Shown here: piece by piece, positions 13,047-18,306 of the stretch
Layout of the letters: the number at the start of each line of letters is the position of its first letter
How positions within the stretch are numbered: the first letter of the stretch is position 1
Virus record (IMG/VR): IMGVR_UViG_3300026094_000002
Strand: one strand, 5' to 3'
Length of the DNA: 64,000 bases
Source: a virus
Lineage: Duplodnaviria > Caudoviricetes
The notes under the pieces: model-generated
What the model was told of the DNA's origin: nothing
What the model saw: the letters and a program-made list of their open reading frames with translations, nothing else
Database searches by the model: none
Program-made: the position numbers and the translations under genes

Positions 13047-14804
13047 TCAAGTTTCATCTGGTTCTGCATCACCGCCTACGTCATCTCCACCTTCTAGATC
13101 AAGATCATCGCCTTCTAAATCAAGATCAAGGTCATCAGCGGTTTCAAGGTCACTATCCATGTCACCCGGCATCATTCCTACTGAACGCAAATCTTGGCCA
13201 GATGCTTCTGCTGGTTCTGATTCGCTTTGTTCTTCTGCCCACAGTTGTTCGTTTTCTACTAATTCTTCTTCGGTTAGACCTAAGAAACGTTTTAGGGCAA
13301 ATCTTTTGCTGATGTATCCCAAACCTTCAACACTCTGGAATGCATTGATCCTAGTATTATCAAGTTCAGCCTGACGATAACTTGCAAAGTTTTGTGGCGG
13401 AGTAAATGATAAGTTGAATAAGCTTGCATCAATATTGAACCCTCTCCAACGAAGGAACATTTTGAATTCATCATCTAGTTTTTGTATTATTAACCGTTGT
13501 AGTCGCTGACAATACTGATTAAATCTATGCTCTTGTATTAAGGCAGTTCCCAAACGACCGTCATTTGAAGTTCTTTCTGAATCTTCAGGTCCAGTTGGAA
13601 GATAACTTGATGGAACACGAAGTCCTCGTGCTAACTTGTTGTTAAAATACTTAAGATCATCAATCTCGCCCAAATTCTGGCCGCCGGGAAGTACATCAAC
13701 TGAACTTCCTCGTCCGTCTGCTGATTGTGGGAAGAAATAATCCTCGTGTGTTGACAGAGGATTATAACTTGAGTCTAATACCTGATCACCACCACCATCA
13801 TTTGTAGGAATCCTACGTTGGTGAATCTCATTTTTAATTCTTTCAACAAACTGCATAGCCAAATGACTTGGCATATCGCCGGTATCTATCTTAAATACTC
13901 TGCGTTCTGGTGCACGTTGAACACGGTAAATTAATATAGCATCCTCAAGTAATTCCTTTTGCTTGAATACTTTGAATACCATTTCTAGTATGCTCTGACC
14001 AAACGGCCAGTACATATCAAGTCCTTCAGACAAACTCATATGCACAACGTGCTCAGCGTCAAGGCACATTTCATTCGCTGTAGTAGAAAATCTTCCTTCT
14101 TGACCTAATGGGGCATTGGGAACAGTTCTGTTATACTGGCTTTGATAACCACCGGAAGTTGGTGTTACCTGATAATCCGTAGTTGTTTTTGGTGCAACAG
14201 TTAAATTCTGAAAGTTTGGATTAATGTCTTGAATAACATATTGTTCTGGACGCTTGCCTTCACTTTCATTGACGATTACTCGGTTGACTTTTGTCATATC
14301 AACCCAGTACATCTCAAATGTTTCTGGGTCTCTTACAAATACCTGATCACCATACTTGATAGTGTTACGAAACAGTTTAAAAATTCGTTGGTCTAATTTA
14401 TTGATCTTGCACCACTGCTGAAGTTGCTTTTTGATTATATCAACTTCATTGTCGGTTGGATCATCCATGTAATTTACTTCAAATGGAGTACCATTCTGGT
14501 CATTCTCTTGAGTACAAAATTCTGCCAAAATATCTAAACAAGCATTGATCTCTGCATCCATGTCCATGTTTTCATATTGGTTATATCTTTCAACACGGTT
14601 AGGGTGTCCAGTATAAACTTCTGGTAATCGGCTTTGGTAATTTCTAAAAGATACATCTGAACCTGAGGTAGATCCACCATATCCGGTTCCGTAATTTATA
14701 CCTCGGTTGTTGTTTCCAGATATTGGACTTAAGTTTCCACCGGGATCTGCTACTTTAAAGTATTTTTTCCAGCCACCACTGCTGGTTTTTGTCATTTTGG
14801 CCAT
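13047..14804 (-). CDS. gp20: Portal vertex protein, gp20-like
   Basis: [28 protein letters not shown] and [25 protein letters not shown] motifs. Confidence 0.93.
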
Positions 14805-14818
14805 GTTTTTATTTACCG

Positions 14819-17182
14819 TTATGCATATGAGTTCTGTAGGATTTTACTCATAATGCTGTTGTTTGATTCTGAAACTCTGATTAAACTGTCTAATTTTGTA
14901 GTTTGATCCTGAATACTTCTCAACTGTTCTCGTAAATTGCGATTTAGTGTTTGAGTTTGTTCGTTTGGACTGTTGTCATTGACAGGAGATGTCATATTAT
15001 TTGACAGTGTTTCAATGCCATCAACAAAAGTATTTGTCATATTATTAATATCAGTCATATATGTCATGACATTATTAAAACCACTACTAATATTATCAAA
15101 TGAATTTAAAGTGCCACCAAGGTTATTAGTGAATCCATCTATGATATTTTCAAAATTTCCTAATCCACTTAGAGATACAGGAATTGAATCACCATCAGGA
15201 AGTGGGACTACAGCCTCAGTACCGTGCATTAACGACAGATATCCCGAATCAGGGCCTGTACTAATCCCGCCTGTGCGATAAGAGCTTATTTCATCCAACC
15301 CAATCTCAAGTTGCTTAGATATTTCTTCAGCAACCTGATCTTTATATTGTCTACCAGCAGATGCTTCGTCATGTTTGTCTAAACCTAAGTATCTCTGGGC
15401 GAGAGCACTTATTAGCGTTGTGTCTTCATTTCTTTCTGATAGATTGGTGTCTAAATCTACTCCCGGTATTCCTCTAACAATGCGTCTGGCAGTATTGCCT
15501 TCCGGGTCGCCGGGCCCAGAGAACAAATCTTTAGCTGTGATTGTACTTTTGGTTTTTAAAGCATCAATTAGGCTTCCAACAACGCGGCCTTCTTGTGTCT
15601 CATATGCTGTTTTTCCCGACGCTGAAAACTCTACTTTACCACTGCCCATTATTGATGGGGATTCTGGTATGGCGTCCATTCCTGCTGTAGATCCGCTAAG
15701 AAAATTAGCACCTGCTGCTTGTTCGCCTTCTTCTCTGCCGATAAACGGCATTGTTTCTAGTAACTCAACAACACTTCGTGTGACTCCTGCAAAACTTTCC
15801 ATCATTGCCGTTGCAGGTGCCACACCGTCTTGTACCATAGCCTGAAGTGCATCACGTGTATCCATTTGAGCAATTCTTAAGTCTGTGCTCATTCCGACTA
15901 AACTGTTTTGTTGTTCAGTAGTGTCTTCTTGTGCAAGATAAGCTTCTTTCATCCTCTCAGTAAGATTTCCTTGTGCACTGTTTAAAGCATCTGCACCTTC
16001 AGAAAATTGACCCATAGCTTGATCAAATGAACCTGTCAACCCCAGCACAAGATCTCTGTTTGCTGATTCTCCTAAACTCGTTACAAAATCTTCAACAAAT
16101 TGGATTGGATCGGTGACACCTTCAGCCAAATCCGTGGCTTGCTTAAGTGCTTCGCCGCGTGTTCTGACCATAAGCTGTGTGGCTTCTTCGCCTACTACGA
16201 AGCCTGTTATTAATGATCTAAGACCTTTTTCAGCACCCGGGAATTCTTCTGCTATAAGGCCAAACATCCGCTCTATTTGCTCAGCACGTTCCTCTTCTCC
16301 ACTATTTCTGAGTTGCAACATTTTTGCACGAAATTGTTGATCACGACGAGCAGCTATTATATTTTCCTCTAACTGGTCCCTCTGAATACCAGTGGCACGG
16401 GTGAGTGCATCAACAGTTTTTAAGTATTCTTCTGAAGAATCAGTTAACTGGCGTGTGCTTCGGCTCTGTGTCATCCCAACTTGAGATTGTAATGCAATAT
16501 AATCTACCATTGCCTCATTCATCTCAGGCACGGTATACCCAAGCATCATAAATTCTCTACGAAGGTTTGTTTGTGTAATCCCAGCGGCAATCTCTCCTAA
16601 TTGGTTGGTCGCTTCACCAACTGTTGGAGCGAATTTGGATAGTTCCTGACGATTATTCGCTATCATCTGGGTGAACTGGTCAAGTTGTTCAATACCCATT
16701 GTAAATTTTTGAAGGTTTTCAAAAACTTGATCAAGACCACCAGCGGTAGCTGCACCAGATTTAGCTAAGTCTTGATAGCTACTATAAAGAGTGTCGCCCT
16801 GTTCAGCAGCAGCCTGTAAGTAATTTGACATACCTCTTATTGCAACCGAGGCAATTCCTGCAGCTTTTCCCAGTCCCGGAATTGCAAAGACCAAACCAGA
16901 TAATACCGAACTTAGAGAATCTAGAGAGTCGTTAAATGAAGACGCACCCTGATCACCACGGTACATTGATCTACCTAAATCAGTGGCGGTTCTTCCTAAT
17001 TTATTGAACGCTCCTTTGAGATCATTGGTTTCTTTAGTGGCTTGTTTAAGTTTGTCTTTGAGTTTGTCCATCTCATCATAGACTTCTTTGCTGACATCTT
17101 TGCCACGTTTTTGTGCCTCATTAACCTCTTCCATTAAATCTGCAAGACGGGCTAAAATATCTTGTACTTCTCTTTCATCCAT
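14819..17182 (-). CDS. Tape-measure-like tail protein
   Basis: 787-aa helical A/Q/G-rich protein with a GGISTGPDSGY...HGTEAVVPLP motif near the C-terminus; divergent from the gp26-like gene. Confidence 0.6.
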   Translation of the reverse strand: MDEREVQDILARLADLMEEVNEAQKRGKDVSKEVYDEMDKLKDKLKQATKETNDLKGAFNKLGRTATDLGRSMYRGDQGASSFNDSLDSLSSVLSGLVFAIPGLGKAAGIASVAIRGMSNYLQAAAEQGDTLYSSYQDLAKSGAATAGGLDQVFENLQKFTMGIEQLDQFTQMIANNRQELSKFAPTVGEATNQLGEIAAGITQTNLRREFMMLGYTVPEMNEAMVDYIALQSQVGMTQSRSTRQLTDSSEEYLKTVDALTRATGIQRDQLEENIIAARRDQQFRAKMLQLRNSGEEERAEQIERMFGLIAEEFPGAEKGLRSLITGFVVGEEATQLMVRTRGEALKQATDLAEGVTDPIQFVEDFVTSLGESANRDLVLGLTGSFDQAMGQFSEGADALNSAQGNLTERMKEAYLAQEDTTEQQNSLVGMSTDLRIAQMDTRDALQAMVQDGVAPATAMMESFAGVTRSVVELLETMPFIGREEGEQAAGANFLSGSTAGMDAIPESPSIMGSGKVEFSASGKTAYETQEGRVVGSLIDALKTKSTITAKDLFSGPGDPEGNTARRIVRGIPGVDLDTNLSERNEDTTLISALAQRYLGLDKHDEASAGRQYKDQVAEEISKQLEIGLDEISSYRTGGISTGPDSGYLSLMHGTEAVVPLPDGDSIPVSLSGLGNFENIIDGFTNNLGGTLNSFDNISSGFNNVMTYMTDINNMTNTFVDGIETLSNNMTSPVNDNSPNEQTQTLNRNLREQLRSIQDQTTKLDSLIRVSESNNSIMSKILQNSYA

Positions 17183-17206: not shown

Positions 17207-17237
17207 TATAAATAACTGATATATCTTATTTTATTTA
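17207..17237. promoter_or_regulatory. Divergent late promoters
   Basis: TATAAATA on + (17207-17214) facing the gp26-like gene and TAAATA on - (17232-17237) facing the tape-measure-like gene. Confidence 0.6.
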
Positions 17238-17248
17238 TGGAAGGAAAT

Positions 17249-18091
17249 ATGAACGATTCACAGAACCCACTCGCAGGATATTTTAGACAACCAGCAATTT
17301 ATATCCGGTTGCCATCAGATGGTCAGTATTACCCTGATGGAACATTACAACCATCAGAAAACAACGAATACCCGGTGCTGCCTATGACAGCAATGGATGA
17401 GATTTCTTATAGAACACCTGATGCACTGTATAATGGTCAGGCCGTGGTATCCGTAATACAAAGTTGTGTCCCAAATATCAAAAATGCTTGGGCTGTACCA
17501 GCCTGTGACATAGACACAATATTAATTGGTATTCGCATTGCAACTTATGGGCACGATTTGGATTTAACAGTGCAATGCCCAGAATGCAAAAACAAAGAAG
17601 ACAGAACACTTGATTTAAGACAAGCACTTGACCAGATAGAATCACCTGACTATACACTCCCGATTGCTCGTGGTGATTTAGAAATCTATCTAAAGCCAAT
17701 GAACTACAAAAATCTCAATGAAAACAACTCTATTCAGTTTGAAGAACAAAAAATTCTGCAAATGTTGCCTGACACTGATATAGATGAGAAAGAAAAGATA
17801 GAAAAAATGAACCAAGCATTAACAAAAATTACTGATATGACAGTTCATGCATTGGCACAAAATATCATATCTATAAAAACACCCGAAGCAAATGTCACTG
17901 AAACTGCTTACATAGCAGATTTTTTGAATAACACTGATCGTGAATTTTTTAATATGATCCGTGACACTATCACTGAAAGAAAGAGAAAATCAGAATTAAA
18001 ACCAGTTAGTGTTGAGTGTTCAGAGTGTAATCATACCTTTGAGCAAGGATACACAATGGATATGACAAATCTTTTCGGGGCCGCCTCTTAG
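17249..18091 (+). CDS. gp26: Baseplate hub subunit / assembly protein, gp26-like
   Basis: NPLAGYFRQP.IYIRLPS, two CxxC motifs (CPEC, CSEC), DTILIGIRIATYG. Start set at ATG 17249 behind AAGGA. Confidence 0.7.
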   Translation: MNDSQNPLAGYFRQPAIYIRLPSDGQYYPDGTLQPSENNEYPVLPMTAMDEISYRTPDALYNGQAVVSVIQSCVPNIKNAWAVPACDIDTILIGIRIATYGHDLDLTVQCPECKNKEDRTLDLRQALDQIESPDYTLPIARGDLEIYLKPMNYKNLNENNSIQFEEQKILQMLPDTDIDEKEKIEKMNQALTKITDMTVHALAQNIISIKTPEANVTETAYIADFLNNTDREFFNMIRDTITERKRKSELKPVSVECSECNHTFEQGYTMDMTNLFGAAS

Positions 18092-18108
18092 CAGCAGACC
18101 AAGAAGAG

Positions 18109-18306
18109 GTGGCCACTATTGTGGATAATATGGAGAAAGAAACTAACCAGATCAGACAAGAACTGGTGAAGATGTGTTGGTTTATGCGTGGTGGTATAAC
18201 CTACGACTTAGCACTACAATTAAGCCCACACGAAAGAAACATAATGTCTCAATTAGTCAAAGATAACTTAGAAACCACCAAGAAAACTGGTTTAAATTTC
18301 TTTTAA
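18109..18306 (+). CDS. Small gp51-like tail/hub assembly ORF (possibly expressed as a -1 frameshift extension of the upstream gene)
   Basis: CWFMRGGITY motif. Frame is open from 18043; the GTG start is buried in a hairpin. Confidence 0.6.
   Translation: MATIVDNMEKETNQIRQELVKMCWFMRGGITYDLALQLSPHERNIMSQLVKDNLETTKKTGLNFF

Follow-up and report, generated by a model that had tools for sequence, protein, structure and literature searches.

Near the 3' end of a gene resembling those of the T4 proteins gp26 and gp51, the window (the whole stretch of 64,000 nucleotides that was analyzed) holds a second reading frame, and the question raised by this locus is whether that frame is reached by ribosomes slipping back one base or is translated from a start codon of its own. 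The first frame (ORF1) ends with AAT CTT TTC GGG GCC GCC TCT TAG, the -1 frame is open from 18043, and the second frame (ORF2) has its stop codon at 18304-18306, exactly the layout given in a first-pass annotation that had proposed a programmed -1 frameshift fusing the two. We found support for this proposal in an in-phase heptamer that is invariant in the family, a switch of codon phase at the junction, the lack of a conserved start or ribosome-binding site for ORF2, and natural fusions collinear with the slip product. On this comparative evidence, it is highly probable that a programmed -1 frameshift yields a short and a long protein in the gp26/gp51 family.

ORF1 matched the Pfam model PF12322 (T4_baseplate) with 54.6 bits and an E value of 1.6e-14, exceeding the gathering cut-off of 24.5, and both T4 gp26 and T4 gp51 match the same model. 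Its PHROG match was phrog_150 (baseplate hub), homologous sequences formed 4138 clusters, and the protein carries two zinc-ribbon-like CxxC pairs. An AF2 model of ORF1 (mf0c95cc5b54a) had a pLDDT of 84 and a pTM of 0.80. Foldseek found no match to this model in the PDB, and PDB sequence searches with ORF1 and with the extension found no solved relative; so far, the gp26/gp51 fold appears to be without a solved structure. Taken as a whole, with the frameshift included, the explanation that ORF1 is the hub or tail assembly chaperone gene of an uncultured T4-like jumbo phage is very likely correct. ORF1 has two in-frame ATGs, at 17237 and 17249, and a match to TATAAATA lies upstream of both; an NCBI sister assembly starts the gene at the second ATG (280 aa). 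Judged by the known T4 late-promoter consensus, this match is a candidate promoter.

The features of the locus are collected in the table. The neighboring 787-aa protein lies between the portal gene and the gp26-like gene, as does ORF088 in phage RaK2, and a BLASTP comparison of the two was collinear with an E value of 1e-4. RaK2 ORF088 is a virion protein annotated as tape-measure-like. The 787-aa protein matched no PHROG or Pfam family, and its assignment as tape-measure-like is weak.

Table. Features of the locus in the window
Feature	Position	Strand	Description
Portal gene	13047-14804	-	Neighbor of the ORF1 locus
Probable tape-measure-like virion protein	14819-17182	-	787 aa, helical, divergent from ORF1
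T4-type late promoter consensus TATAAATA	17207-17214	+	23 nt before the ORF1 ATG; read from sequence
ORF1, 0-frame short form	17237-18091	+	284 aa, gp26/gp51-like hub assembly chaperone
Slip site	18070-18076	+	Here U CUU UUC; family consensus U UUU UUC
ORF2, -1-frame extension	18076-18306	+	76 codons plus stop, begins R-G-R-L-L
Stem-loop, candidate frameshift stimulator	18077-18117	+	13 pairs, 14-nt loop, directly 3' of the slip site

We compared the junction with those of relatives identified by tblastn in cultured jumbo phages (about 30% identity) and by a scan of IMG/VR, which gave 80 loci with 44 to 82% amino acid identity and 59 distinct gap-free junctions. In 57 of these 59 junctions, the gene has U UUU UUC in phase, with G as the next base, 2 to 6 codons ahead of its stop. 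The codon before Phe-Phe encodes a varying residue (N, R, T, or S), and its third base is T throughout. The same site and -1 ORF were found in 10 isolates (RaK2, Serratia BF, CBB, XbC2, E. coli A4, ph0011, Atu_ph07, Phosso, XacN1, and PA5oct), with a run of U7 in XacN1. Thus, the slippery site is conserved at the aligned junctions, a check that the first-pass annotation had proposed, and the combination of heptamer, -1 ORF, and frame switch recurs among relatives far beyond chance. A DNA-level search of phage records with the locus gave no match, and a comparison with Rfam found no family at the junction. A +1 slip on CUU was ruled out because ORF2 is in the -1 frame.

Codon-position variability was calculated as column entropy for codon positions 1, 2, and 3. 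Upstream of the heptamer, the values in the 0 frame were 1.01/0.72/1.33, and downstream, those in the -1 frame were 0.81/0.51/1.41; the first seven codons after the heptamer were already phased in the -1 frame (0.74/0.47/1.19). As judged from the alignment, the heptamer marks the exact point at which the variability changes from 0-frame to -1-frame phasing, and -1-frame coding is conserved ahead of any start codon, as a frameshift would predict. The -1 frame consistently reads Phe-Phe-Arg-x-Arg/Lys-Leu-Leu and continues into a conserved domain of about 70 aa, and the 0-frame tails past the heptamer vary in length and sequence. CGN as well as AGR codons are used for the second Arg, that of Arg-Leu-Leu, which suggests selection at the level of the amino acid. 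Furthermore, the extension is intact, length conserved, and under purifying selection in hundreds of lineages. A chance overlap or a decaying, functionless gene is effectively refuted by this conservation, and nothing other than the damaged heptamer in the window copy speaks for it.

If ORF2 were made mainly by independent initiation, a start codon of its own would be expected at GTG 18109, GTG 18121, or ATG 18130. The damaged heptamer of the window and an AGAGG motif 11 nt before GTG 18121 are in line with such an origin, which we nevertheless consider unlikely, because the candidate starts lie inside or just past the stem and because initiation there would lose the Phe-Arg-x-Arg-Leu-Leu segment that is under selection in the -1 frame across the family. 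No such start is conserved in the relatives: the position of the first potential start codon (ATG, GTG, or TTG) in the -1 frame ranges from codon 3 to codon 38, and a start with a Shine-Dalgarno-like motif in that frame was absent in half of the sequences. What is present here is a -1 ORF that is open across the site, selected from the site onward, and devoid of a conserved start, and the failure to find a conserved start and ribosome-binding site for the second ORF favors the frameshift proposed in the first-pass annotation.

Natural fusions of the two frames bear on the same point. When 1.8 billion representatives were searched with a profile built from the extension, 436 matches were obtained, most of which were short stand-alone gene calls with arbitrary starts. 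Among the best 150 of the 436 matches, however, about 20 were single ORFs of 319 to 351 aa with the PF12322 part at the N terminus and the extension at the extreme C terminus. Such single-ORF proteins (P0234, P0237, P0240, P0241, P0245, and others) come from uncultured lineages. An earlier word-based search for longer proteins with the extension had found none, and the fusions were found later by the full profile search. Their junction has one Phe instead of Phe-Phe and therefore no slippery run, and when the -1 slip products predicted for the window and three relatives are aligned to them, no gap falls at the junction. The model of a fused homologue (pLDDT, 89; pTM, 0.83) forms three further helices from the extension and matches a BFVD entry described as a T4-like baseplate hub assembly protein (E value, 3e-15; TM score, 0.61 to 0.74). 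Its junction lies within a helix, which again argues against a separately initiated ORF2. Because the natural fusions are collinear with the slip product and are predicted to fold confidently, they provide independent evidence that the transframe protein is a functional long form. We infer that the locus gives rise to short and long products with a common N terminus, of which the long form is functional.

The slip site of the window itself does not conform to the X XXY YYZ pattern in phase, since its P-site codon CUU cannot re-pair on UCU, and only the tetramer U UUC is intact. Where the window encodes N-L-F, N-F-F is encoded in two sister assemblies of this phage (on contigs 193.5 kb and 305 kb long; proteins P0097 and P0217), whose proteins are otherwise identical to the ORF1 product; these assemblies presumably carry the canonical heptamer. 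Since the sisters encode Phe-Phe, the C at 18071, a T-to-C change, is private to the window assembly, and it is thus either an error or minor variant or the mark of an attenuated site composed of the U UUC tetramer and the stem. The first-pass annotation had named CTTTTC as the slip site and cautioned that the heptamer was non-canonical. That caution is correct for this assembly only, whereas the slip site proper is the U UUU UUC of the family, from which the window deviates by one private base.

It is quite possible, if somewhat doubtful, that the real phage is canonical and that the C at 18071 stems from faulty sequencing or assembly or represents a minority variant. The Phe-Phe of the two sister assemblies and the canonical run in 57 of 59 distinct relatives agree with this, whereas homopolymer errors are usually indels and not T-to-C substitutions. 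Besides, a stable T-to-C change elsewhere in the run, with N-F-S as the 0-frame reading, occurs in the closest IMG/VR relative (L004; 82% identity) and in five more clusters, which indicates that the run varies in this sub-clade. The variant (L004 2334-2340 and clusters P0098-P0103) has five U's followed by CC, so that a canonical heptamer, A AAU UUU, lies in phase one codon farther upstream. Exact-pattern scans of viral, metagenome, and genome collections found neither site variant.

Should the C be real, the site has a precedent. In T7, gene 10A/10B is frameshifted at a functional -1 site, G GUU UUC, and, as this site and motif surveys in E. coli show, slippage of a single tRNA works at low efficiency with a stimulator. 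At the T7 site, as in the window, only the A-site re-pairing from UUC to UUU is perfect; the T7 P-site codon re-pairs at two of three positions versus one of three here, and the genes are unrelated. The strong adjacent stem could partly compensate for the altered heptamer of the window. One paper (PMC12846349) mentions the T7 gene 10 frameshift.

The stem in question pairs 18079-18089 with 18104-18114 over 11 bp with one G-U pair, and RNAfold extended it by two pairs, giving -20.2 kcal/mol (z = -1.66). Since 13 of 200 dinucleotide shuffles folded as well, the stem alone is not clearly beyond chance. The first-pass annotation had described its length, its single G-U pair, and its start 2 nt after CTTTTC correctly; it had also stated that the stem buries both the TAG and the GTG start, and the paired region takes in the first base of the TAG and GTG 18109 in full. 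As to the short spacer on which it had remarked, 2 nt compares with a typical distance of 5 to 9 nt between slip site and structure, and the 5' arm of the relatives starts at +5 to +7. The arms of L004 are identical to those of the window, and the loop differs at four bases.

In many relatives, the 5' arm, formed by the Arg-Leu-Leu codons, has its pairing partner in a 3' arm farther downstream, at a distance that depends on the clade. This 3' arm lies at about +33 in the window, L004, and a marine group, and in other clades at +55 to +61, +67 to +81, or +104 to +118, the last of which falls within the codons of a conserved Met-Arg-Gly-Gly motif. For the arm at +8 to +27, the median best duplex was -18.1 kcal/mol, and 44% of sequences reached a P value of 0.05 or below against arm shuffles, whereas two upstream control arms did so in 8% and 0%. 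A single helix of the 5' arm with a partner at +66 was also examined in 48 sequences; 62.7% of cells were paired versus 59.6% in shuffles, and some compensatory pairs occurred (C-G to A-U and C-G to U-A). Such a helix was rejected as a family-wide structure and is clade specific only. The stem of the first-pass annotation is a candidate stimulator; a 5' arm is common across clades and compensatory changes exist, but they do not define one conserved structure, and the short-range 11-bp stem is specific to a sub-clade. Our reading is that of a fixed 5' arm with movable 3' partners, an arrangement that would fit a ribosomal stimulator and could not act on transcription.

The last point weighs against transcriptional slippage, in which RNA polymerase would add one U in the T run. 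A homopolymer site and an identical protein product are what such slippage would also give, and the title of one paper hints at a non-translational mechanism in T4-like phages. However, the run of six T's in the family (seven in XacN1, five in the L004 lineage, and four in the window) is below efficient lengths, and the L004 lineage retains its in-phase A AAU UUU heptamer. Furthermore, the conserved downstream arm with its clade-specific partners is not yet transcribed when the polymerase passes the run and cannot affect it. We regard transcriptional slippage as very improbable.

Under the favored reading, a programmed -1 frameshift in translation, a fraction of the ribosomes decoding Phe-Phe on U UUU UUC would slip back by one base, read CGN (Arg), and continue for about 76 codons in the -1 frame. 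Ribosomes that do not slip would end a few codons after the site and release a short form of about 280 aa, and the others would make a long form of about 356 aa with a helical C-terminal domain. The slip would probably be stimulated by the RNA helix whose 5' arm, 2 to 7 nt after the heptamer, encodes the conserved Arg-Leu-Leu. By analogy with lambda G/GT, the complex of hub and tape measure might be the target of both forms, with another partner recruited by the extra domain of the long form. In the window, if the C at 18071 is real, tRNA-Phe would slip less efficiently from UUC to UUU, aided by the nearby stem. The predicted -1 frameshift is one of a known kind, found here in the gp26/gp51 chaperone family.

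Xu, Hendrix, and Duda are said to have described (2004, Mol Cell 16:11) a conserved -1 frameshift of tail assembly chaperone genes such as lambda G/GT. The arrangement found here resembles lambda G/GT in that two products share a common N terminus and that, in the family, a -1 slip would take place close to where the short ORF ends, at a canonical heptamer; in both cases, the assembly chaperone gene adjoins the probable tape-measure gene. Unlike in lambda, the ORF1 protein is about twice as large and bears zinc-ribbon motifs, and ORF1 is divergent from the putative tape-measure gene, instead of lying directly upstream of it and co-oriented. None of the Pfam, PHROG, and NCBIfam matches of the gene belonged to the known families of tail assembly chaperones (TAC). 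The G/GT analogy drawn in the first-pass annotation therefore holds in outline, given the paralogy of gp26 and gp51 and the likeness of gp51 to the long form, whereas the placement directly upstream of a tape-measure gene does not apply.

In T4, gp26 (208 aa) and gp51 (249 aa) are the hub assembly chaperones (Leiman et al. 2010, PMC3004832, Table 2). Both belong to PF12322 and are paralogous, with a pairwise E value of 2e-6, and gp51 homologues have an extra C-terminal Pfam domain. We compared the extension with gp51 by hhalign. The whole extension family matched the C-terminal end of gp51 with a probability of 55% and an E value of 1.2e-4, the RaK2-like extension subset matched gp51 with a probability of 30%, and the fused and gp51 families aligned collinearly from the N domain to the C terminus with a probability of 60% and an E value of 8.7e-5. 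The C-terminal tail of gp51 shares with the extension the patterns F-K/R-x-L-L...P-D/E-E-I/V at the junction and P-x-E-R near the end, and it is shorter (about 50 aa versus about 76 aa). These matches are suggestive, not conclusive, of a correspondence between the extension and the C-terminal end of gp51, and T4 gp51 looks like the fused long form and gp26 like the short form. T4 differs in using two separate genes and no frameshift, whereas one gene in two frames would serve for both forms here. T4 gene 26 also has an internal-start product, 26'. It is directly followed by gene 25, and therefore no equivalent of ORF2 exists there.

None of the ten GenBank/RefSeq records inspected annotates a frameshift. 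The -1 extension ORF is unannotated in the RefSeq records of RaK2 (L003 3343-3564) and PA5oct (L091 3226-3453), and it appears as a separate hypothetical or predicted ORF with an arbitrary start in Serratia BF, CBB, XbC2, A4, ph0011, XacN1, Atu_ph07, and Phosso. Neither this frameshift nor a transframe protein is mentioned in the proteomics papers on CBB, Atu_ph07, and phAPEC6, and the papers on phage G and P1 likewise do not report this frameshift. According to a second-hand summary of Vladimirov, Gautam, and Davidson 2022 in PMC10885494, T4-like phages have a short TAC gene and a longer fused one, and another summary, in PMC12846349, refers to poly-T -1 signals in "TAC-N genes of T4-like phages." This second-hand account, with short and long fused products and poly-T signals, agrees with the pattern described here. 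The study by Vladimirov et al. (2022, Virology 566:9-15), which reportedly identified the TAC genes of T4-like phages, may already cover the finding.

We put forward only tentatively, as a possibility, that the frameshift in PF12322 hub-chaperone genes is both unpublished and the ancestral way of making the gp26/gp51 pair. If this is true, T4 with its two genes and some uncultured lineages with a fused ORF would be resolved derivatives, and thousands of lineages would form a natural series from a frameshifted gene to separate genes. The phage analyzed here and its nearest lineage would then be cases in which the slippery run drifts in the presence of the strongest and closest stimulatory stem. 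Besides, the frameshift would explain mechanistically a gene pair whose annotation in the inspected genome records is wrong, and the same arrangement may exist in thousands of metagenomic lineages, as the homologue search suggests. It would also make gp51, the long-puzzling "catalyst" of the T4 hub, the long form of a chaperone whose short form is gp26 and would extend the frameshift logic of G/GT to T4-like myoviruses. For the window itself, there is a smaller practical point, namely, that the odd heptamer is a one-base private difference. About 40 nt past the stop codon of the extension, a short hairpin (GATGTGC/GCACATC; 18345-18372) may end the transcription unit.
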